In this document: piece after piece, positions 35,627-63,292 of the stretch | Layout of the letters: every line of letters starts with the position of its first letter | Position numbering within the stretch: position 1 is the first letter of the stretch | Origin: Candidatus Woesebacteria bacterium | GTDB lineage: Bacteria > Patescibacteriota > Microgenomatia > UBA1400 > UBA1396 | Assembly: GCA_963749595.1 (NCBI GenBank) | Contig: CAVVNJ010000010.1 | Location: 65,223-129,222, forward strand | Direction: 5' to 3' | Length of the DNA stretch: 64,000 nucleotides | Notes under the pieces: model-generated | Databases searched by the model: none | Seen by the model: the letters and a program-made list of their open reading frames with translations, nothing else | What the model was told of the DNA's origin: nothing | Translations under genes and position numbers: made by a program

Positions 35627-36562
35627 TTGGCTCAGAGGATATATTTCCCTAACATGGAAAAATATCAAGAGCTTGGGCTTCCGGAATACAATATTCCTGA
35701 AAATACTGGTGTGATTCAACCACTTGAGGAAGGGATTAGAAGTGGGGAAATATTATTTGAAGGTGATCATTTCTTGGGCGTTTGTGCCGCTCCTCTCCGC
35801 CCCCACACCTATGGAAAACACGATGTCTTGTGGTTTATCTCGAGGGAAACGGGTGCCTTGGCCTCCAATTGGAACAATCTTCTACGGGATGAAGCGTTAA
35901 TTATCCAAATTGAGAAAGCATTTAGTTTACGGCAAGAAAAAGACGTCTCCCTGAGGCTATATTGTCACGATACCGTGCGGTCGATTCGTTATCCCCTAGA
36001 CAGTTCCGTTCTACTTGATAGGAACATTCAAAGTATTCCGCAAGCCCACATGCATATCGCTGAGGGAATCTCTAGCCCGCCGCCAGATCGAGTTTCCATC
36101 ATTGGGGCCGATTCTCCCAATTTTATCTATAAGTTGGCAGTAATTTTTAACCATTCTCAGGAGCTATTTTCAAAATGGTTAGTTGAACACAATGTTGACT
36201 TCGGCAAACCATTCTCGTATATCCAGAAAGTTGGACTGACCAATGCGGTTAGAGTACAGCGGACAGTTTTTGAGTTTGAGTCCCTATTGTTTGCATTAAA
36301 AGGTGCTGATGGACTAAAACAACAACTGGAGCCAATCTGGTACGCATTTGTTGCTTCCTTAGAGGACAACAAATTTTCTTACCCTGAATTGTCGGTTTTT
36401 ATGAAAACCAGCTACTCGCCAAACTTGGCCTTCCTAATTCCAACAGTTAACGATAATCGATTGTACAATCTTGACACACAAAAGACCTATGTTTTTGCCG
36501 GAACGATCTCTTCCCCAGTTGAGTTATTAATGAAAGGCGGCGGATGGCTGAACAGAATCTGA
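35627..36562 (+). CDS. Hypothetical protein with a HIT-like histidine motif
   Basis: 311 aa with IPQAHMHIAEG. Overlaps the start of the downstream guanylyltransferase gene. The start codon is uncertain (TTG 35627 or ATG 35654). Confidence 0.5.
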   Translation: MAQRIYFPNMEKYQELGLPEYNIPENTGVIQPLEEGIRSGEILFEGDHFLGVCAAPLRPHTYGKHDVLWFISRETGALASNWNNLLRDEALIIQIEKAFSLRQEKDVSLRLYCHDTVRSIRYPLDSSVLLDRNIQSIPQAHMHIAEGISSPPPDRVSIIGADSPNFIYKLAVIFNHSQELFSKWLVEHNVDFGKPFSYIQKVGLTNAVRVQRTVFEFESLLFALKGADGLKQQLEPIWYAFVASLEDNKFSYPELSVFMKTSYSPNLAFLIPTVNDNRLYNLDTQKTYVFAGTISSPVELLMKGGGWLNRI

Positions 36563-37662
36563 AGGTATCAAATAATATTTTCGCAGTAATTTTGGCCGGA
36601 GGAGGAGGAACAAGATTATGGCCAGCCTCAAAAGAGAAACTCCCCAAACAGTTTCTGAAACTCAACGGCCCCATCACCATGACCCAGGCAACTATGAAGA
36701 GGCTGTTGCCATTTGTTCCAATAGAAAACATTATCCTTGTGACCAATGAAAAGTACGCGGATGAAATAAAGAGGGAGTTGCCCGAGTTGCTAGAGGACAA
36801 CATAATTTATGAGCCAGAAAAAAAAGACACAGCTCTGGCAATGTTGGTTGGAGCGCTGGTGGCGCGCTCAAGAAATCCGGATGCCGTTATTGTAAATGGC
36901 GCCTGCGACCATATTGTGGAGAATATCGATCTATTTATCAATACCATGAAGGATGCAATCTCTATTGCCAGCAATAGTGAAAATCTTGTTGCCGTCGGAA
37001 TTGTTCCGACAAGACCCGACACTGCGTTTGGATACATACAAAGCGGCAAACCAATAACAGTTAAGGGTATATCACGCAAGATTTACGAGGTTTCCTCATT
37101 TCGTGAGAAACCTGATTATGATGTTGCCAAGGAATATGTTGAAAGCAAACAATATTATTGGAATGCAAACATGTACGTCTGGCATGTTGAGACATTAATA
37201 CAAGCTTTCCACAAATACTGTCCAGATGTGCTAAAAAGGGTTCAACCGATTATTAATGCTGATTTTATCTCCATCAAACAGCATCTTCCGAAGATCTATC
37301 AGGATTTTCCTTCCATCTCAATAGATTATGCCATCAGCGAAAAAACGGACAATCTCTTGCTTATCCCGGGAAATTTCGGTTGGAATGACATTGGCGACTG
37401 GAAAGTAGTATATGATCTGCAGCCACATGATGCTAATGGCAATGCTACGATGCCCAATTGTAGTTCAGATGAAGCCATGTTTATTAACAGCCGGGGAAAT
37501 CTAGTTTGGAACAGTAAAAAGAAGATCGCATTACATGGATTAAACAATCTGGTGGTTGTTGATACTGGCGATGTAATAATGATTTGTAAGAAAGATGAAA
37601 CCCAAAAAATAAAAAAAGTTGTTGAGTTGTTAAAAACACAGGGAAGATTGGAATATCTCTGA
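36544..37662 (+). CDS. manC: Mannose-1-phosphate guanylyltransferase-type sugar nucleotidyltransferase
   Basis: FAVILAGGGGTRLWPASKEKLPKQFLKL and GYIQSG...FREKPD. Confidence 0.85.
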   Translation: MAEQNLKVSNNIFAVILAGGGGTRLWPASKEKLPKQFLKLNGPITMTQATMKRLLPFVPIENIILVTNEKYADEIKRELPELLEDNIIYEPEKKDTALAMLVGALVARSRNPDAVIVNGACDHIVENIDLFINTMKDAISIASNSENLVAVGIVPTRPDTAFGYIQSGKPITVKGISRKIYEVSSFREKPDYDVAKEYVESKQYYWNANMYVWHVETLIQAFHKYCPDVLKRVQPIINADFISIKQHLPKIYQDFPSISIDYAISEKTDNLLLIPGNFGWNDIGDWKVVYDLQPHDANGNATMPNCSSDEAMFINSRGNLVWNSKKKIALHGLNNLVVVDTGDVIMICKKDETQKIKKVVELLKTQGRLEYL

Positions 37663-37668
37663 TCAAGA

Positions 37669-38307
37669 TCAGTACGAGGACAATACGTTTCCAGAAACAT
37701 TCTCTTTTTCTTTGCCTACGGCATAGGCGCTATGTTCCAAAAATAGCCAGGTATGAAAGTCAGACAAGGTCGAAATCCTTCTTATCTTTTCTTCAAGCTT
37801 TTTAACGCTTTCAGCCTCTCTACCTTTTCTTTCCCGCAGCACTTCTTCGCTGATACCAATGTTCTCTGAAGTAAGGAAGTCAAGTTCATACCCATCATTC
37901 GGAGTCAAGCCAAATACCCATTCGAAAGCCGCTTTGGTCCTAGCCATATGAAATTCCGAGGTGATGACTAATAACCGTTTTAAATTTCTTGGATCGGTGT
38001 GAATAACTCTGGCGAAGTAGGCGTTTCCGATGGTATCGTAGGAAGAAGTTTCCAATAATATTTTTTCAGGGCTGATACCCCGGCTGGCTAAATAATATGC
38101 CGCTGCTTGTGATTCAAAAATGGGAAAACCCTGTGGGTTCAGCGGTGGTGCTTTGTGGGTAGTGCCCGCGCTCAAGGTAATGAAAAATGGATTCTCGCGG
38201 TTACTTTTTAGTGCAAGTTCTAACCTTGCTTTGGTCCATTCCGGCAAACCACCTTTGTCTGTCAGACCACCACCGGGTATAAGAATTGCCTGATATTCTT
38301 TCCTCAC
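37669..38307 (-). CDS. YdcF/DUF218 family protein
   Basis: ILIPGGGLTDKG...LLVITSEFHMARTK. Confidence 0.75.
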   Translation of the reverse strand: MRKEYQAILIPGGGLTDKGGLPEWTKARLELALKSNRENPFFITLSAGTTHKAPPLNPQGFPIFESQAAAYYLASRGISPEKILLETSSYDTIGNAYFARVIHTDPRNLKRLLVITSEFHMARTKAAFEWVFGLTPNDGYELDFLTSENIGISEEVLRERKGREAESVKKLEEKIRRISTLSDFHTWLFLEHSAYAVGKEKENVSGNVLSSY

Positions 38308-38373
38308 ACCATCATCTTATCATAACTATAATTAATCCCCGCCAACAACGTCTTGATTTGTTTTTGATGCCTT

Positions 38374-39444
38374 TCAAAAGCCGTGAGTTTTGGATTTCTT
38401 GCCTCCTTTTTCAAAATAAGAAATTAAATGTGGGTCTATTAATTTGCCTCTTTTTTTCATCAAAAGCAACCTTCTTAATTTGCCCCTCAGAATTTCGGAT
38501 TGGTAAAAAGGACGGATATATCCTAAACGGCTTAATTGGCCAAGCACCGTCTCCGCCTCTTTAAACTGACCTAATATGTCCAAAGATCCAGAAATTCCCT
38601 CAGTGATGGTTGCCACTCTATCGTTGGAAAAGCCGATTTTCTCTACCAACAGTTGAGCTTTGTTAATCGTTATAAATAATTTGTCCTTGTCATTCCGGTG
38701 TGCATATGAAAATAGCAGCATTCGAAATAGCTCTGATTTTGTGACATCGTCTGCAGAATCTATGATATTTTCAGCATAATCAATTACTTTTTGCCATTGA
38801 CTAGTGGCGTAATAGTTCGTGACCACATTTAAATGGGTAAGATTAATTATTTCATTATCTTTTGTTGCTTCTCCAATGCTTAAGGTTTTTTCATTGTATG
38901 ATCTTGTGGCCTCAATAATATCTTCTCCCGTGCTGATGTCCGATAATATCTTTGCCTTTTCAACACAAATATTTCCATAGACTCCGATAGCCCCGGAACA
39001 TCTCGATGACAAGTCAGTTTCAAAAAGATTTTCGTAATACTCTGCCACTATAAAAGCGTTATGGATGTCACCACCCTCTCTAAGTGATCTGATAATCTTT
39101 GGTGCCATGGGAATCATATCGCCGTTTATTACCACCAAACACTCGTTGGCTTGTTCCTCGCAGAAGCCTTTTTTGGTTAATAAGTCCCGCATGAGACTTT
39201 CCCTAAGAAGAATGGCGTCAATTCTGGAGATTGCCAATATCTTGCAAAATGAATTAAGCTGTTTTTGACTGAAAATCCTCTTCCCATTTATCACTTTTGA
39301 CAAAATGCTAGGATCCATATCCCCAAAACCAAGATCCTCCATCATTTCCAGAGATAATTTATTGAGGGAGCTTCCGTTAATAAACACAATTCTATTGCCA
39401 ACTCTTTTATAATATCTTTGCAATAAATTATGTAGCTTTTTCAT
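38374..39444 (-). CDS. Putative HTH regulator with a long helical-repeat C-terminal domain
   Basis: AT-rich 356-aa ORF. The N-terminus DPSILSKVINGKRIFSQKQLNSFCKIL is XRE-HTH-like. The rest is predicted all-helical by eye. Confidence 0.55.
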   Translation of the reverse strand: MKKLHNLLQRYYKRVGNRIVFINGSSLNKLSLEMMEDLGFGDMDPSILSKVINGKRIFSQKQLNSFCKILAISRIDAILLRESLMRDLLTKKGFCEEQANECLVVINGDMIPMAPKIIRSLREGGDIHNAFIVAEYYENLFETDLSSRCSGAIGVYGNICVEKAKILSDISTGEDIIEATRSYNEKTLSIGEATKDNEIINLTHLNVVTNYYATSQWQKVIDYAENIIDSADDVTKSELFRMLLFSYAHRNDKDKLFITINKAQLLVEKIGFSNDRVATITEGISGSLDILGQFKEAETVLGQLSRLGYIRPFYQSEILRGKLRRLLLMKKRGKLIDPHLISYFEKGGKKSKTHGF

Positions 39445-39611: not shown

Positions 39612-39652
39612 TCCAATAGAAACAATCAATAAACGCTTCCCAGAAATTTATG

Positions 39653-39735
39653 TGCCGGCTGAAGGATTCGAACCTACGTAGGCTATTGCCAACAGATTTA
39701 CAGTCTGTCCCCGTTGACCGCTTGGGTAAGCCGGC
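39653..39735 (-). tRNA. tRNA-Tyr (GTA)
   Basis: Acceptor GCCGGCT/AGCCGGC, anticodon loop cTGTAAa, long variable arm, and T loop TTCGAAT with one U-U mismatch in the T stem. No encoded CCA. Confidence 0.85.
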
Positions 39736-54914: not shown

Positions 54915-56150
54915 ATGACTTGGCAGAGCGAGGTAATTCGTCAGGATTTTCCGATTTTATCCCGACAGGTTCATGGGCAGCCATTGATTTATCTCGATAA
55001 CGCGGCCACGACGCATAAACCGGAGGCGGTGATTGGAGCGATCAGCGATTACTATCGTCACCACAACTCGAATGTCCACCGCGGGAGTTCATACGTTGGC
55101 CGATGAGAGCACGCAGATTTATAGCGAGGCCCGGCGAGACGATCGCCGGTTTTTTTGGGGCGACAGCCGGAAGAATTGATCCTGACTCGCAACGCGACCG
55201 AGGCGCTCAACCTGGCCGCGCTGGGCTGGGGTCGGCAATGGGTTGAGGCCGGGCGACGCGATCGCGGTCACGATCATGGAGCACCACAGCAACTTTGTCC
55301 CCTGGCAGGAGTTGGCGCGGGAGAAGGGCGCTCAGTTCGTGGTTTTGCCGTTGACGGACGACGGTCGTTTAGACCAGACGGCCGCGCTGCAGATTATGGA
55401 TGAGTTAGGCGACAAATTAAAGGTCCTGGCGCTGACCCACGTTTCTAATACTTTGGGCACGGTCAACCCGGTCGAGAAGATCACCGCTCATCTTAGTCGA
55501 AAATCCTGGCGTTCCCGCGTGCTGGTCGTCGCCGATATTGCCCAAAGCGCGGCTCGCATTCCCCTTTCCTCGATTGCTCTGGGCGTCGACGCTCTGGCTT
55601 TCTCCGGTCATAAGATCTATGGTCCGATGGGCATTGGCGGTTTAATTGTTCAACGCAAGTCGATTGGCAGAGTTCCAACCGGTTTTGTTTGGCGGCGGCA
55701 TGATCGGCCGCGTCGGCGAATCCGAGACCACCTTACGCCGAGGATCTTCAGGATCGTTTTACCGCCGGAACTCCTGATGTAGCCAGCGCGGCCGGTCTGG
55801 CCGCCGCCTTCGACCTACTGAACAAAATTGGTCGGAGGCCGTTTTGGTCCACGAGCAGGAAATCACTCAGTACGCCTACGAGCAGCTTAGTCGGTTGCCG
55901 GAAATCGAGTTGGTCGGTCCCCAGCCGGACGCCGGACGACTCGGCTCAGTCGCTTTCCTGTATAAAGGAGTGCATGCCCATGACGTGGCTCAGATTCTCG
56001 ACCGCTCCGGGGTGGCGGTTCGCTCGGGTCATCACTGCACGATGCCACTGCATACTGTATTGTGGCTGGCCAGCGACCACCCGCGCCAGTTTTGCGATTT
56101 ATACCACAGCCGAGGAAATCGATGCGCTGGTGGCGGCGCTGATCAAGTAA
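54915..56150 (+). pseudogene. sufS: Cysteine desulfurase SufS-type, at least 8 frame changes
   Basis: LIYLDNAATTHKP, TRNATEALNL, IMEHHSNFVPW, LTHVSNTLGT, FSGHKIYGPMGIGG, FTAGTPDVA and RSGHHCTMPL are spread over frames 0,1,2,0,1,2,0,2,0. Confidence 0.8.
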
Positions 56151-56171
56151 AAAAGGTATTCCGACATTAAT

Positions 56172-56589
56172 ATGGACGATCTTTACCGGGACCACATTCT
56201 AGATCATGCCGAAAATCCCGCCGCGAGGGTAAGTTTGCCCCATCCCACCCACACCGGCAGTTATGGCAATCGCTCCTGCGGCGACGAGATCGACCATTGA
56301 TCTAGAGATTATTGACGGCCGAATCATCGCGGTTCGTTGGCGCGGCGAGGGTTGCGTGATTAGTCAAGCGGCGGCCAGTTTGCTAGCCGAGGAAATCGAA
56401 AATCTGCCGATTGAAGAAGTATTATCCTGGGAAGATGACGCGGTGCTGGACGAGCTCGGTTTGCCGGAGGTTTCTTACGCCCGCCGGCCTTGCGCTCTGA
56501 CGTTTATCAATACCCTCCGCCACATCCTGAGGGTCAGACCCTCCAGGCGTGAGGGTACCCCAGGGTCAGACCCTCAGGAGGAAGGGTGA
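56172..56589 (+). CDS. sufU: SufU/IscU-type Fe-S scaffold, one frame break at about 56292 and a repeat-encoded C-terminal tail
   Basis: MDDLYRDHILDHAENP...GNRSCGDEI, then (+1) TIDLEIIDGRIIAVRWRGEGCVISQAAAS. Confidence 0.7.
56527..56578. repeat. REP-like element (variant core GGGTCAGACCC, two copies) forming the 3' end of the sufU ORF
   Basis: ctgagggtcagaccctccaggcgtgagggtaccccagggtcagaccctcagg. Confidence 0.65.
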
Positions 56590-57128
56590 TCATTGGCATT
56601 GGCAGTACCAATCCAGTGAAGCAAGCAGCCGTGGAGCAAGCGGTGCGGGCGGCGCATCAGCATTTAGGTCTTGCGGACTTACTCGATTTCCAAGCTCATG
56701 AAGTTCCCAGTGGAGTTCCGGCCCAACCATTTTCGGACGAAGAGACCAAGCGGGGAGCTCTTAATCGCCTGAGCGGAGTATTGTCTCTAAATTCGGCAAT
56801 CGATCTGGCCTTTGGTCTAGAAGGCGGGGTGGTCGAATTGGCGGACGGATTGTACTCGACAGTTTGGATTGCGGTTGGCAACCAAGCTGGAAAAATTGTC
56901 GTCGCGAACGGTATTAGATTTCCCTTGCCAGAAAACTTGGCGGTGGGAATTCGCTCCGGCCAGGAAATGGGCGCGGTCATGGACCAGCTTTGCCAAACCA
57001 CCGGAGTCAAACATGGGGCCGGTATGATCGGCGTGCTCACCGGCGGGGTAGTAACCCGCACCCAAGCTTATTCCGATCTGGCGCGGATTGCGTACGGCCT
57101 GTTTTTGCCGAATTTCACCGCCACTTGA
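56586..57128 (+). CDS. yjjX: YjjX-type (DUF84) inosine/xanthosine triphosphatase
   Basis: IIGIGSTNPVKQAAVEQAV...GMIGVLTGG. GTG start. Confidence 0.75.
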   Translation: MIIGIGSTNPVKQAAVEQAVRAAHQHLGLADLLDFQAHEVPSGVPAQPFSDEETKRGALNRLSGVLSLNSAIDLAFGLEGGVVELADGLYSTVWIAVGNQAGKIVVANGIRFPLPENLAVGIRSGQEMGAVMDQLCQTTGVKHGAGMIGVLTGGVVTRTQAYSDLARIAYGLFLPNFTAT

Positions 57129-57203
57129 CGCGATTCCCAATTCCAGCGCATACTGAATTTACCCAGATCTTGGGTTCGTTTGGATATAGCTGGAAGGAAA
57201 TTT

Positions 57204-58937
57204 ATGGCCATGGCCCGTCGAACAAGAAACTTTCTCCTGATCGGAGTTGTCCTTGCCTTGATTATTGCCGGTGCCGCGACCTTTTTTGTTCTGAATCGCT
57301 ATTTCCTGACCGGTCAGACTACCGAGCTGCGGGGCAGGGCCAGCATTGGCGCCATCGGTACCGCAACCATGACCCTGGATACCAAATCAAATACTCGCTA
57401 CGTCAACGATGAGTTTCCGGTCGATATTACTCTTGATACTGGTAACGGCGCTGTTTCGGCGGTCGCGGTTGGGTTGAACTATACCTCCAGTGGCACTGAT
57501 CCAGAACTGCAAATAGTCGATGCCGATCCAACCCGAGACGGGATCCAAATTATTTCTCACGTTGCAACGAATATGCCTGGTTGTTCCGATCAGATTAACC
57601 AAGTGAACCGGGAAACTGCTGACCCGCGCCACATCTTCATTGATTTCGGCGCCACTTGCGGCAGCGCTACCGGTTACAACAGTGGGGGTAAAAAAATCAT
57701 TGCCACCATTGTTTTTCGGGCCAATCGCGCGATCTCAAAGACAATTGAACACGATCCAACCAAGGCGATCGTAACATTGAAGGAGACCGGGGATGATACC
57801 CTCAACTCCGTGCCGGCCCTTACCATTAACGTGCTGGCCGATACTCAGGCACCGGTGGTCTCTTTTACTCCCGATTCATTGGTTGCGCGTACGGACGGAA
57901 AGCTAGCCACTAGTAGCGCCATGGTCCGTTTCGCCTGGAACGGCACTGAGCAACCAGCTCGTGCCGACGACACGGTTTTGCTTGATCAATACGTGGAATA
58001 TCAGTATCGCTTCAATGAGGCGGCCTGGCCGACTACCTGGGTTAGGGAAAAGACCGTTACCCGCAGCTTTGCCCATAATGTCACGACCGGCCACACCATT
58101 CAGGTTCGCGGACGCGACAAAAATGGCAATATCAGTGCGCCGATTTCAAAAAATTTCCTAGTGGACCTGTCGCCCAGTGTTAGTAGCATTGCTCCAACTC
58201 ATGGGGCCGCCGGTGCCCAGATTACCATAGCCGGATTCAACTTTGGCACAGTCAAAGGTTCGGTGTTTTTCGGCACGGCTGAAGTAACGGGAACTAATAT
58301 CATTAGTTGGACGAATGAGCGGATAGTTGTTAGGATTCCCGCCACTGCGGGATCGACAGTGAGCGTTAAACCCCCGGCGCCCCAGCCGGTTTCCAACACG
58401 GTGCCTTTCACGTTGGATACCAACCTGCGCTTAGTAATGAACTTGCAGGGCTTGGGTCAAGATCGAGGTCCAAAACAGGTGAGCGTAGTGGTTTCCCGCG
58501 GCACCTATGAGGCACGCTTCAACAACCTGGATGCGATCTGGGACGCGGCCGAAAACGCCTATGTGGTGGTGACACCGCCGCTGGCCGATACTGGTCTTGC
58601 TACCGCTGCCAACTTCGTAGTGTCGGTTAAAGAAATGTCGCGCCTACGCAAGAAGTTTACCGCCGTTTCGTTAACGCGCGGCTCACAAACCTCGGTGGTA
58701 AAGAAAGCTGCGGCTGATTTACAAAAGGTAGGTGACGTCAACAACGACAACAAGATCAGCGTGCTGGATTTCAGCGACATGGTGCGCCCTGGTAACTTTA
58801 CCGGCCTCGCGACGGCGGTAACCGCGGCTAACGCCAAGTATGATCTTAATGGCGATGGGTCATTGACTGCCGCCGACATCGCTCTGTTGTTGGCCAATTA
58901 CACGCAACTGGAAACCCCAGGCGATGCCGAGAAATAA
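57204..58937 (+). CDS. Membrane-anchored surface protein: cohesin-like domain + IPT/TIG domain + C-terminal dockerin
   Basis: A ggaagg RBS is present. The IPT/TIG segment is IAPTHGAAGAQITIAGFNFG. The dockerin repeats are GDVNNDNKISVLDFSDMV and YDLNGDGSLTAADIALLLANY (58731-58901). Confidence 0.75.
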   Translation: MAMARRTRNFLLIGVVLALIIAGAATFFVLNRYFLTGQTTELRGRASIGAIGTATMTLDTKSNTRYVNDEFPVDITLDTGNGAVSAVAVGLNYTSSGTDPELQIVDADPTRDGIQIISHVATNMPGCSDQINQVNRETADPRHIFIDFGATCGSATGYNSGGKKIIATIVFRANRAISKTIEHDPTKAIVTLKETGDDTLNSVPALTINVLADTQAPVVSFTPDSLVARTDGKLATSSAMVRFAWNGTEQPARADDTVLLDQYVEYQYRFNEAAWPTTWVREKTVTRSFAHNVTTGHTIQVRGRDKNGNISAPISKNFLVDLSPSVSSIAPTHGAAGAQITIAGFNFGTVKGSVFFGTAEVTGTNIISWTNERIVVRIPATAGSTVSVKPPAPQPVSNTVPFTLDTNLRLVMNLQGLGQDRGPKQVSVVVSRGTYEARFNNLDAIWDAAENAYVVVTPPLADTGLATAANFVVSVKEMSRLRKKFTAVSLTRGSQTSVVKKAAADLQKVGDVNNDNKISVLDFSDMVRPGNFTGLATAVTAANAKYDLNGDGSLTAADIALLLANYTQLETPGDAEK

Positions 58938-58947
58938 AGAAGGAGTT

Positions 58948-59814
58948 ATGTTGCTGCCCGTTTTAACCCTCCGCTCGGTTGTTGTTAGACTGATTAAACT
59001 GGGGGTTCTGGCTGGCCTGGTTCTGATACTGATTGGCAATTTGGTTCCTCAACCGCAGGCTTATGTCCAAGGCGGAGTCGGCAAAATATTGCTCCAACCG
59101 GCGACTGGAACCATGACCACCGGAACGGATTTTGCGGTTGATGTCATGATTAATACCGGCGGTCGGGCAATTTCAGCCCTGGCTTTTCGCCTACCGGTGA
59201 ATGCCGCTGACTTGCAGGCCACATCAGTTACCGGCAATGAGGCTATCGGAGGAGGTTGGTCTTACCCTTATAGTGCGACCACCGTTAATGGACAGAACAT
59301 TGTCGAGTTGATGGCGGTTAACAGTTCGACGACCGGCTATACTTCCGGTACCAACGTCAAAATTGCCACGATTGTTTTTCGGGCGACCTCAGCTTTTACC
59401 AATAAAGCTTTGACCTTTGATTTGACGCAAACGCAAATGTTGACTAAAGAAGCCACGCCGGTTGATATTTTGGGAACGGCGACTGGCGGAACCTATAGTG
59501 CCTCCGGAACGGCGGTTGCGCCCACCCCGACACCAACGCCAACCCCCACACCGACACCTGATCCGGATGCTACTCCCACCCCGACGCCGCTACCGACTCC
59601 CACTCCTGATACTACCGCTACGCCCACTCCAACACCGGACATTGGTATTGGTGGTGGCGATGACACTATTGGTGGTTCAACAGACACCACTGGTCAGCCA
59701 GCAATCACTCAACCGGTTCCGGAAACGGCCAGTCCAGGTGCGATGTTTGCCTTGGGCCTCGGCGGTTTTGGCTTGCTGGTCTTGGGAGGCTTTGCCTTCC
59801 GGCGCCGCAGCTAA
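58948..59814 (+). CDS. Cohesin-domain protein with a PT-rich stalk and a C-terminal sorting-signal-like anchor
   Basis: An aaggag RBS is present. The cohesin-like segment is TDFAVDVMINTGGRAISALAFRL...KIATIVFRA. The TPTPTP linker is followed by VPETASPGAMFALGLGGFGLLVLGGFAFRRRS. Confidence 0.75.
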   Translation: MLLPVLTLRSVVVRLIKLGVLAGLVLILIGNLVPQPQAYVQGGVGKILLQPATGTMTTGTDFAVDVMINTGGRAISALAFRLPVNAADLQATSVTGNEAIGGGWSYPYSATTVNGQNIVELMAVNSSTTGYTSGTNVKIATIVFRATSAFTNKALTFDLTQTQMLTKEATPVDILGTATGGTYSASGTAVAPTPTPTPTPTPTPDPDATPTPTPLPTPTPDTTATPTPTPDIGIGGGDDTIGGSTDTTGQPAITQPVPETASPGAMFALGLGGFGLLVLGGFAFRRRS

Positions 59815-61342: not shown

Positions 61343-63292
61343 TTATCTGGTAGTTGATCCAGAAAGCTTATCAGCCCGCAAAACCTTGATGGCTTTTTGG
61401 ATTACTTCCTTTTGTTTCTCGGTGACAGGAACCAAGGTAAATCCCTTACCAAGGGGAACGATGATCAAAGCGAAGCCCTCATTTTCACCCATATTTTTTT
61501 CCGACCACCATTTCGGCGCGCCAAATATCGGATAGTTGGTATAGGGGTTATCTCCGTCAAAGGCACTACCCCAGCCTGAGCCGGGCTTATTTCCCCCGAC
61601 AATAACCGCTGGTTTTACCCTCTTTTGAATACCTTGGTAGGTAGACTGCAATCCAAGCAGAGGTTTTTCGTTGGAACCCCGTCCTTGAAGTCCATGCAGC
61701 ATAGTCATCGGTACGATTGATTTAGGACCCAAGTTTAGATAAATAGTGCCTAGTTCGGCTAGAAGTGGCACTCCAGCAGTTTGGGAAATATAGGTAGCGG
61801 GGGGAATCGGCAGACTGTCGACACCCTGTCCCACGGCGCGTTTCCACCCAGCCCCACGCAAGCTATCGGAAAGCAAGAGGGCTAGATTACGATCACCCAT
61901 GCTACCCATCATGGCCAAGAGACTATCGAGAATCTTTCGTCGATCATGTAAGTTGCCGGCGGTTTTTTCCATTACGTCCATCCAGGCAGCAAAAGAATGG
62001 TCGTCTTGACTGATTTTTTTCAGATTGCTTTTAAAAGCTCTGATTTGAGCAGCGCTTGATCCGTAGCGGAGATGGGCAAAAACTTCAATGGTAAGCGGCA
62101 TGCGGATTGCCTCGCCAGATAGGGTACTAAAATCCAAGTTGAGCTTGTTGTACGGAACTTCATAAGCATTGGCAAAGTAAGCACTTTGTGAGTCGCCGAT
62201 TTCCGGATAACTACTTATTGCTTTGGCCGTGCGCTTTTCCTTATCTTGTTGCTCTACCGGCGAGTCCTTTTCCGTCTTTGAGCGCACTGAACCGCCGCCA
62301 ATCTGCACTTGAATGGGCCCCTCTCGATGATAGGCTTCCTGAATCCGCTCATCGGTTGTGCCTTCGCTTTCAGTCTCGTCAAGTTTTTCGATCGCCTCTA
62401 AAACCAAATCAGCCACCTGCTGATTCATAAAGCCGTAATGAAAATTCTTTTCTGAATCAAGGATGATGCCTTGTTCCAAGGGATCGGTGGGGGGAAGTCC
62501 CAGTCTGGTGCCAAGCGAATCGGCCGGTTTTTTGCGATTAGAGCCTTTAGGAGTGCCGATAGCCACCAGTTCTTTGCCGGTATTCTCTACTCCCGAATCA
62601 TGATAATGGGAGGTAACCACTCCATCACAATCGATATCAATTGCTTGTCTGGCTCCATGCACCGGATCATTCTTGCTCCTGCCAGGGGGTTGGTGGAAGG
62701 CCTTAAGCGAATAGACCACCTTTCCATTGCGGTGGAAACGAATGGTTGCACCGTTGGCAATTAGTGGAACCTCCATTCCGCCGAGCATGTTTTTCCAGAT
62801 ATTTAGACCAGCTTCGTCCGCCGACCAACCAGGATGACCGAAATACTCGGAAACCATACCAACAACTTTTCCCTGTTCGTAAAGTGGGCGCAGAAACCTC
62901 TGGAATAAGGTGATCTGCTTGTCCAAATTAATGGACCGGGTCAAATTACCCGTATACTTTTTGACCCAGCCTTCAATTTCATCGCCGGTAAGAATAACTA
63001 CCGCCCGATCATCATCTAAGATTCGGCGTTGTAGTTGATCGATGGCTCGAATATCTGAGGAGGCGGAGCCAATATGCAGATCGCCCACTGGGTAGATGAC
63101 GGCTAAGTTATTCTTTAAGTGAAAAGGCCTACCTTTTGCGGGATCATTTCTTTCGGCTGACTCTTGAATGACAAACCATTCCAGCAGGGCCAGTTCTTCG
63201 GCAGAAAGTTCGCGCAACTGCCCAACCATCTTATCGACGAGTCCGCCAATAAAGGAGCGACGTTCGTTTTGTTCATTATTATTTCGTCCCAT
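61343..63292 (-). CDS. Large protein: calcineurin-like metallophosphoesterase domain followed by a degenerate copy of itself
   Basis: The first half has GDLHIG, LTGDEIEG and SHYHD. The second half aligns with it but reads FAHLRYG, LSDSLRG and VGGNKPG. Confidence 0.7.
   Translation of the reverse strand: MGRNNNEQNERRSFIGGLVDKMVGQLRELSAEELALLEWFVIQESAERNDPAKGRPFHLKNNLAVIYPVGDLHIGSASSDIRAIDQLQRRILDDDRAVVILTGDEIEGWVKKYTGNLTRSINLDKQITLFQRFLRPLYEQGKVVGMVSEYFGHPGWSADEAGLNIWKNMLGGMEVPLIANGATIRFHRNGKVVYSLKAFHQPPGRSKNDPVHGARQAIDIDCDGVVTSHYHDSGVENTGKELVAIGTPKGSNRKKPADSLGTRLGLPPTDPLEQGIILDSEKNFHYGFMNQQVADLVLEAIEKLDETESEGTTDERIQEAYHREGPIQVQIGGGSVRSKTEKDSPVEQQDKEKRTAKAISSYPEIGDSQSAYFANAYEVPYNKLNLDFSTLSGEAIRMPLTIEVFAHLRYGSSAAQIRAFKSNLKKISQDDHSFAAWMDVMEKTAGNLHDRRKILDSLLAMMGSMGDRNLALLLSDSLRGAGWKRAVGQGVDSLPIPPATYISQTAGVPLLAELGTIYLNLGPKSIVPMTMLHGLQGRGSNEKPLLGLQSTYQGIQKRVKPAVIVGGNKPGSGWGSAFDGDNPYTNYPIFGAPKWWSEKNMGENEGFALIIVPLGKGFTLVPVTEKQKEVIQKAIKVLRADKLSGSTTR

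Follow-up and report, generated by a model that had tools for sequence, protein, structure and literature searches.

What is a protein that seems to carry one hydrolase fold twice, once with its metal ligands and once without them, and what would the first copy gain from the second? The question is raised by a 649-residue protein encoded in a 64,000-nucleotide stretch of Candidatus Woesebacteria bacterium DNA (assembly GCA_963749595.1, contig CAVVNJ010000010.1, positions 65,223 to 129,222 of the forward strand; this whole stretch is termed the window below). A preliminary description, made from the sequence alone, had proposed that the first half is a calcineurin-like metallophosphoesterase (MPE), that the second half is a degenerate copy of it, and that the fusion suggests a pseudo-dimeric regulator or sensor of a family that it did not recognise. 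As set out below, the two halves are indeed homologous members of one MPE clade; the N-terminal domain keeps nearly all of the catalytic residues, and the C-terminal domain has lost most of them while remaining equally constrained. We favour, at a probability of roughly 0.55, a single-chain pseudo-heterodimeric phosphodiesterase or nuclease with one active site, in which the dead domain serves as a scaffold, as a substrate binder, or as both.

The gene is a single, uninterrupted open reading frame (ORF) with an ATG start on the minus strand, a strand that the preliminary description had not named; the plus-strand translation of the same interval is full of stops. Its parts are given here in window coordinates. 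Fractions refer to the 72 full-length family members introduced below, structural elements to a model predicted with AlphaFold2 (AF2) and its per-residue confidence (predicted local distance difference test, pLDDT), and the register of the C-half motifs to the hhalign alignment of the two half-protein profiles.

61343..63292, minus strand: whole ORF, tandem MPE plus pseudo-MPE, 649 aa (ORF list, relatives, AF2 model).
63128..63292, minus strand: N-terminal helical extension, residues 1-55 (AF2 helices 4-24 and 31-48, pLDDT 52-80; no conserved columns).
62393..63127, minus strand: N-terminal MPE domain, residues 56-300, probably active to judge from its residues (phrog_7339, PF00149 in homologues, hhalign).
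63065..63088, minus strand: motif I, VGDLHIGS, residues 69-76, with D71 and H73 (both invariant, 72/72).
62969..62992, minus strand: motif II, LTGDEIEG, residues 101-108, with G103 (70/72), D104 (70/72) and E107 (58/72).
62825..62845, minus strand: motif III variant, YFGHPGW, with H153 (72/72), W156 (68/72) and G152 in the canonical Asn slot.
62681..62701, minus strand: motif IV, AFHQPPG, with H200 (72/72).
62594..62614, minus strand: motif V, TSHYHDS, with H229 (65/72) and H231 (71/72); SHYHD is residues 228-232.
62117..62392, minus strand: acidic inter-domain linker, residues 301-392, with helices and short strands in the AF2 model (isoelectric point (pI) 4.64; lower conservation, 0.34).
61364..62116, minus strand: C-terminal degenerate MPE (pseudo-MPE), residues 393-643 (hhalign against the N-half and a single-domain MPE profile; AF2 element order).
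62057..62080, minus strand: degenerate motif I, FAHLRYGS, with H407 and R409 in place of Asp and His (family N407 44/72, R409 62/72, G411 66/72, S412 57/72).
61964..61984, minus strand: degenerate motif II, WMDVMEK, residues 437-443, with D439 and E442 (family position 439 N26/H9/G8/Q7; D442 57/72).
61844..61873, minus strand: motif III counterpart, LSDSLRGAGW, with R479 in the Asn slot (49/72), G480 in the His slot and W483 (71/72).
61673..61702, minus strand: motif IV counterpart, MLHGLQGRGS, with H533 (Asp at 533 in 68/72 relatives).
61574..61606, minus strand: motif V counterpart, VIVGGNKPGSG, with N568 and P570 in place of two His (family GGHMP; H568 49/72, P570 40/72, G566 and G567 at least 90%).

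Whether such a protein stands alone or belongs to a family depended on the search method. A word-indexed search of 5.8 billion proteins returned only the query, with either the single sequence or a 63-sequence alignment as input; HMMER, run exhaustively against 1.84 billion cluster representatives, recovered 139 relatives, 71 at E <= 1e-10 and 30 at E <= 1e-30, with a best identity to the query of 37%. About 72 of the 139 are full length (600-760 aa) and align end to end with the query, to which these 72 family members are only about 20-35% identical, and the alignment of the 72, cut in two, yielded an N-half profile (query residues 55-300) and a C-half profile (residues 385-640). The family had been left without a name in the preliminary description, and this holds: a functional name is absent from the Pfam, NCBIfam and PADLOC results for the query and from the source records that were checked. 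The PADLOC anti-phage defence models returned 0 families at E <= 10 for the query, a phmmer search of the PDB with the query gave no meaningful match, and only two of ten members looked up in their source collection carried a name, in both cases 'hypothetical protein'.

Two sets of relatives are not what they seem. Five proteins that appeared to consist of the C-half only (P0038, P0047, P0054, P0088 and P0090) look like fragments, not stand-alone C-domains; the four that were read (P0038, P0047, P0054 and P0090) start inside the linker or in the last part of the N-domain, and in two of these the first residue is not Met. In the 640-aa protein P0135, the query N-half seemingly matched another C-half; this protein actually has just one MPE domain, interrupted by an insert of about 330 residues that resembles an intein and lies directly after motif III (...GDAHCHEGW / CVDEK ... 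ITGN / SKRATGW...). Inteins typically insert at functionally important sites, and the position of this one suggests that the motif III region is functionally critical in the clade.

The preliminary description inferred the internal repeat from aligned segments, and on the single sequence the case for it is marginal. A Smith-Waterman alignment of residues 1-330 with residues 331-649 scores 51, compared with 34.7 ± 4.7 for shuffled C-halves (z = 3.4), a score that 2 of 500 shuffles reach; the best BLASTP segment between the halves has E = 0.013, and the alignment is colinear over the whole length. At the level of the family the comparison is decisive. The N-half and C-half profiles match in hhalign with a probability of 99.5-99.8% over 215-220 columns, at E = 3.2e-23 in local and 4e-28 in global mode, whereas 20 column-shuffled C-halves gave E = 0.05-0.84 (scores of 9-19, compared with the observed 155.7) and a reversed-profile control gave E = 0.28. 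An independent profile of single-domain MPEs likewise matches the C-half (99.6%, score 167.5, E = 1.4e-24) and, in hhalign, the N-half (E = 2.5e-48). Because these scores lie far beyond the controls, the internal repeat is real, and the two halves are homologous and derive from the same MPE clade. A chance or compositional resemblance, for which the weak self-alignment (z = 3.4, 2/500) might be cited, has a negligible probability: it is refuted by profile-profile E-values of 3e-23 to 4e-28 against control values of at least 0.05, and also by the order of secondary-structure elements, which matches between the halves in a high-confidence predicted model.

The way in which the repeat was first drawn needs two amendments. 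Four of the five segment pairs that had been proposed are reproduced exactly by hhalign; the second, RAVVILTGDEIEG with RNLALLLSDSLRG, was mis-registered. In the correct register, LALLLSDSLRGAGW pairs with VGMVSEYFGHPGW, which places the motif III strands and their near-invariant tryptophans (W156 and W483) opposite each other, and GDEIEG pairs with WMDVMEK. Additionally, the second half had been called the enzyme's own copy. It is a homologue from the same clade, but it lies about as near to the single-domain profile (167.5, E = 1.4e-24) as to the N-half (155.7, E = 3.2e-23), and since the C-half is equidistant in this way, an intragenic duplication and a fusion of two same-clade paralogues both fit.

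How complete is the active site of the first half? The calcineurin-like assignment is borne out, in that the motifs VGDLHIG, LTGDEIEG and SHYHD are present, the MPE fold matches, and, of the eight residues that canonically bind metal or take part in catalysis, seven are kept. D71, H73, H153 and H200 are found in all 72 members, G103-D104 in 70, H231 in 71 and H229 in 65, and position 107 in motif II is Glu in 58 and Asp in a further 9. The one exception is the Asn of motif III: position 152 holds Gly in 51, Ser in 10, Ala in 6 and Cys in 2 members, with Gly in the query, and motif III sits in a clade-specific G-H-x-G-W, where single-domain relatives carry the canonical NH[ED] or CHEGW. Ligands that are near-invariant among proteins only about 20-35% identical lead us to expect a metal site in the N-half; judged by its sequence, the N-domain is a divergent member of the MPE superfamily that probably binds metal and is probably a catalytically active, binuclear metallophosphoesterase.

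Profile searches point to the kind of enzyme that this might be. The PHROG profile phrog_7339, whose label 'DNA repair exonuclease' is an annotation only, matches residues 61-237 (profile positions 28-205 of 263) at E = 2.9e-17 and 63.9 bits. The Pfam Metallophos model (PF00149) matches 26 of 63 family members at E <= 1, and in the cases inspected it exceeds its 21.5-bit gathering cut-off on the N-halves of P0008 (26.7 bits) and P0040 (21.9 bits). When the N-half and its single-domain relatives are combined in one profile and compared with the PDB, the DP1 subunit of PolD comes first (E = 5.8e-5), then SbcD and Vps29, and B subunits of Pol delta and epsilon also appear among the sequence-profile and Foldseek matches. 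By sequence comparison, then, the nearest characterised kin of the N-domain are nucleases and phosphodiesterases.

The C-terminal half tells a different story at the same positions. D71 of the N-half corresponds to N407 in 44/72 members (His in the query), H73 to R409 in 62/72 (Arg), D104 to position 439 with N, H, G or Q (Asp), E107 to D442 in 57/72 (Glu), G152 in the Asn slot to R479 in 49/72 (Arg), H153 to the variable position 480 (Gly), H200 to D533 in 68/72 (His), H229 to H568 in 49/72 (Asn) and H231 to P570 in 40/72 (Pro). In the family consensus, the ligand slots of the C-half thus hold two Arg, two Asn, one Asp and one Pro, with one His kept, a pattern of replacement that makes a canonical two-metal centre impossible. 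Together with the hhalign result, these substitutions confirm the earlier view that the second half is homologous and has lost most of its metal ligands.

Loss of the metal centre has not been followed by decay. About 40 residue patterns occur among the 72 members at eight C-half ligand positions; the mean consensus frequency is nonetheless 0.40 in the C-half vs 0.41 in the N-half, and P399, R409, G411, R451, W483, D533, G547, G566, G567 and G594 are near-invariant. The C-half is also the more basic of the two, with a median pI of 8.2 vs 6.4 and the higher value in 78% of members; the query shows 9.75 vs 6.56. None of 10 members scanned individually has a Pfam match on the C-half, and the only Pfam families common to more than one of 63 members are two Metallophos models. 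The C-half is therefore an ancient paralogous MPE fold that has lost its metal centre, is not decaying, and is as constrained as the N-half.

The predicted structure agrees with this division. The AF2 model, built with the 63-sequence family alignment, has a mean pLDDT of 90.1 and a predicted template modelling score (pTM) of 0.88; a single-sequence AlphaFold prediction of the query (pLDDT 34) was not used. In the model, the elements of residues 63-310 (beta1, alphaA, beta2, alphaB, beta3 and so on to a long helix at 291-310) map one-to-one onto those of residues 400-643, the C-domain ends in a helix at 625-643, and residues 1-55 form two poorly conserved helices and no OB fold. All Foldseek matches in the PDB at E <= 0.001 are MPE-fold proteins by description, with the PolD DP1 exonuclease first (1.2e-6), followed by the Pol delta B subunit and LpxH; weaker matches, at E up to about 0.013, include Vps29, Rv0805, TT1561, SbcD/Mre11 and YmdB. 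In BFVD the best match is an unnamed 410-aa phage protein (5.4e-16), and the named matches are mostly phage metallophosphoesterases, several of them labelled 'DNA polymerase II small subunit'. The pTM of 0.88 makes the pseudo-dimeric arrangement put forward in the preliminary description plausible as a feature of the model. A SinR-like helix-turn-helix match in the linker (E = 0.058) was not significant and was set aside.

Comparison with known systems sharpens what is shared and what is new. The nearest relatives of the N-half are phage-type single-domain MPEs (PHROG 7339 and the BFVD proteins labelled 'calcineurin-like phosphoesterase' or 'DNA polymerase II small subunit'), which have in common with it an HxGS after motif I, a Trp after motif III and a GTxK after motif V. 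They consist of one domain of 250-400 aa, whereas the tandem family adds a second, degenerate copy and replaces the Asn or Cys of motif III by Gly. Among solved structures the best relative, by both structure and sequence profile, is PolD DP1, an archaeal 3'-5' proofreading exonuclease whose motifs I, II and V align; DP1 differs in its OB domain, its DP2 partner, its canonical GNHD and its archaeal origin, and at only about 13-16% identity the similarity is confined to the phosphodiesterase fold. Mre11/SbcD share the MPE fold and give weaker Foldseek and profile matches, but form homodimers in which both subunits are active, and have a capping domain, a Rad50/SbcC partner and GNHD in motif III, where the present protein has GHPGW. 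Vps29 and the B subunits of eukaryotic DNA polymerases alpha, delta and epsilon resemble the C-half in being MPE folds that lost their metal ligands and act as scaffolds; they are free-standing dead domains in eukaryotic complexes, whereas here the dead domain is bacterial and fused to a seemingly live paralogue. Outside this fold, receptor tyrosine phosphatases with D1 and D2 domains and JAK kinases with a kinase and a pseudokinase domain also duplicate a catalytic fold of which one copy is dead yet conserved, although the folds (PTP and kinase) are unrelated, and B. subtilis YfkN has tandem live MPE modules, each paired with a 5'-nucleotidase C domain.

From these comparisons a mechanism can be sketched. 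The bonds that the N-domain most likely hydrolyses are phosphodiesters, probably those at the ends of nucleic acids. Many MPEs work as homodimers, Mre11/SbcD and Rv0805 among them, and in Mre11/SbcD the two MPE domains act side by side, an arrangement that a fused pseudo-dimer would imitate; the dead C-domain would take the place that a second subunit had in an ancestral homodimer and so form an obligate pseudo-heterodimer. It might contribute stability to the fold and offer a positively charged surface to a phosphorylated substrate, probably a nucleic acid. We infer the catalytic activity, the nucleic-acid substrate and the part that the dead domain plays, and the assignment as nuclease or phosphodiesterase is taken only from the nearest relatives (DP1, SbcD and the PHROG label). 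The protein has no obvious signal peptide or membrane segment when the sequence is read by eye, and for this reason we take it to be cytoplasmic.

Where does the family occur, and in what company? A scan for a pattern built from a 14-sequence subset, with one genome per GTDB species, found 18 loci. All seven with lineage-naming titles belong to Patescibacteria, the Candidate Phyla Radiation (CPR), namely Collierbacteria, Woesebacteria and 'Patescibacteria group', and are metagenome-assembled genomes; the other 11 are titled 'uncultured Pseudomonadales/Gammaproteobacteria bacterium', which we took as placeholder names. A metagenome scan added 31 further loci. The family has thus been seen so far only in Patescibacteria (CPR). 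The pattern scan of viral contigs found no two-domain member, and the N-half had no pairwise tblastn match in the 50,697 phage genomes of INPHARED; with both sets empty, a phage origin of the fused two-domain gene was rejected, although the single-domain clade looks phage-rich. At L053:1132-1674, one single-domain relative, P0070, adjoins an HNH_3 homing-endonuclease gene, which is consistent with a single-domain clade carried by phages or mobile elements. The gene in the window has a GC content of 0.484 and a GC content at third codon positions of 0.477, values that fall among those of the window's other long ORFs (z = -0.6 and -1.0), so that there is no compositional sign of recent transfer.

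Neighbouring genes were clustered over 50 loci, which form 16 clusters at 70% identity. The commonest neighbour is Dus, the tRNA dihydrouridine synthase (PF01207), which lies upstream on the same strand at 37 of the 50 loci and in 12 of the 16 clusters, and the linkage persists in a cluster that shares just 28% identity with the main one; examples run from L001 to L049 (e.g. L003:4969-6153, L045, L047-L049). A conserved gene of about 190-210 aa sometimes stands between Dus and the tandem-MPE gene, and the member of it that was scanned (L015:584-1222) has no Pfam match. Dus is missing from the entire 64 kb of the present window, and also at the closest homologue, P0002, and at P0014. In 6 of the 16 clusters, a response regulator and a CHASE-PAS histidine kinase follow downstream on the same strand, with gaps of 2-60 nt at the loci measured; this pair is confined to one sublineage and is not in the window. 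Further neighbours are an MBL hydrolase, an SNase, a PD-(D/E)XK nuclease (L008/L012) and a NUDIX protein (L018), and no polymerase is found among the conserved neighbours of the 50 loci. In the window, a class II lysyl-tRNA synthetase (LysRS) gene follows on the same strand, 15 nt away if its GTG start is counted and 51 nt from its likely ATG start, an adjacency unique to this window among the loci compared; on the upstream side a divergent FAD/NAD-binding oxidoreductase lies across a 170-nt spacer. No promoter, terminator, riboswitch or other Rfam signal around the gene rises above chance. The context of the gene is one of ordinary chromosomal housekeeping, with no signature of a defence island or a prophage.

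Several observations weigh against the reading of the protein as a one-site nuclease or phosphodiesterase. Canonical MPEs bind metal through an Asn in motif III, for which the family as a whole substitutes Gly, Ser, Ala or Cys, so that activity or metal stoichiometry of the N-half could be atypical. D442, D533 and H568 are kept in most C-halves, which makes a residual single-metal or ligand site possible there, and the query deviates at near-invariant C-half positions (D533H and G594K). The query itself has no match in Pfam or NCBIfam, and the Foldseek matches are those of the whole model, the output of the program not reporting which half is responsible. Finally, the neighbourhoods hold no clear nuclease partner, the commonest neighbour, Dus, being missing here, and no SbcC/Rad50 (SMC-type ATPase) occurs among the conserved neighbours scanned against Pfam at the 50 loci.

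Some of these points speak for other explanations. The missing Asn and the failure of Pfam Metallophos to match the query are what would be expected if neither domain were catalytic and the whole protein were a scaffold like Vps29 or the eukaryotic polymerase B subunits, and Vps29 and the Pol delta/epsilon B subunits are indeed among the Foldseek and profile matches. We consider this very unlikely: seven N-half residues with canonical ligand or catalytic roles vary little or not at all at about 20-35% identity, which is unexpected in a protein without a metal site, the single-domain relatives carry Cys or the canonical Asn in the motif III slot, and the intein-like insert of P0135 lies right after motif III, as is typical of functionally important sites. 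The retention of D442 (57/72), D533 (68/72) and H568 (49/72), along with conserved R409, R451 and R479 and a C-half as conserved as the active half, could instead mean that the C-half is a re-tooled enzyme or a mononuclear metal site with a different chemistry, making the protein bifunctional. This is more improbable still, since the Asp and His of motif I, the His of motif III and the second His of motif V are all lost, and the roughly 40 residue patterns over 72 members at eight positions, together with the change of D533 to His and H568 to Asn in the query, leave no fixed catalytic constellation common to all members.

The suggestion of a regulator or sensor takes its strongest form if the active half cleaves a small nucleotide (cyclic, 2',3'-cyclic, of the Ap4A (diadenosine tetraphosphate) type, or one from salvage) and the dead, Arg-bearing half senses phosphate or a nucleotide allosterically. 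The conserved polar residues of the C-half (R409, R479, D442, D533 and H568) could hold a phosphorylated ligand, the small-molecule MPEs LpxH, Rv0805 and YmdB are among the Foldseek matches, and the genes nearby offer further hints: the two-component pair in 6/16 clusters, NUDIX at L018, and, in the window, an NTPase_I-T gene about 4 kb off and LysRS, a known producer of Ap4A, immediately downstream. However, the best relatives by sequence and structure are of the nuclease type (DP1, SbcD and the PHROG 'DNA repair exonuclease'), the two-component context is restricted to one sublineage and absent from the window, the LysRS adjacency, found in this window only, is a weak lead at most to Ap4A, and the query has lost conserved residues of the supposed pocket (D533H and H568N), which fits poorly with a conserved ligand site. 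The regulator or sensor of the preliminary description thus finds no support, and we regard even this small-nucleotide form of it as rather unlikely. A bolder combination, doubtful in our view and speculative in its details, would have the C-half pocket, with R409 and R479 at the places of the metal ions, recognise phosphate or a nucleotide and either gate the DP1/Mre11-like N-terminal site allosterically or position an RNA or DNA end, so that the protein would be a CPR-specific single-chain 'half-of-sites' nuclease, which, in view of the recurrence of Dus next to the family, might serve the processing or repair of tRNA or RNA ends; if true, it would be the first described fused pair of enzyme and pseudo-enzyme in the metallophosphoesterase superfamily. 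Relative to all of these, the pseudo-heterodimeric phosphodiesterase or nuclease with a single active site is the reading that we retain.

What is new here is a family that lacks a functional annotation, with a C-terminal domain missed by Pfam and NCBIfam; the fold, its pseudo-enzyme derivatives and the pattern of duplication and inactivation are known. Metallophosphoesterases are among the best-studied hydrolase folds, and their dead versions, such as Vps29 and the polymerase B subunits, are textbook pseudoenzymes, yet a full-text literature search on tandem, duplicated or degenerate MPE domains or on MPEs of the CPR returned nothing relevant, and no description of a live-dead MPE fusion was found. 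The C-terminal domain could be defined as a new domain family, and the protein extends the lineage-specific repertoire of CPR/Patescibacteria, whose nucleic-acid metabolism is very reduced, by a conserved but functionally unassigned member. If the favoured reading is right, nature has also supplied a single-chain MPE dimer with one site switched off, which would be useful for asking why MPEs dimerise and what a second subunit contributes. The stakes are moderate, because duplication followed by inactivation is common and does not imply new chemistry.

Other features of the window deserve brief mention. The NTPase_I-T gene (inosine/xanthosine triphosphatase, DUF84) lies at 56586-57128 on the plus strand, about 4 kb from the MPE gene. 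Also on the plus strand, a SufS-like cysteine desulfurase (Aminotran_5) at 54915-56170 is spread over at least three ORFs in different frames (54915-55106, 55243-55782 and 55844-56170), which makes it either a pseudogene or a product of assembly frameshifts, and a NifU/SufU-like ORF stands next to it at 56263-56589. At 57180-59814, plus strand, a 585-aa IPT/TIG and dockerin type I protein is followed by a 296-aa cohesin-domain protein, whose cohesin match of 23.8 bits falls just under the Pfam cut-off of 24.1 and whose sequence, read by eye, has a Pro/Thr-rich linker and a hydrophobic C-terminus; the two look like a small cohesin-dockerin surface pair. Finally, two long ORFs at 36544-39444, with a GC content of 0.37-0.41 compared with 0.50 for the window, adjoin a tRNA-Tyr gene (39652-39735) and may form a foreign island.

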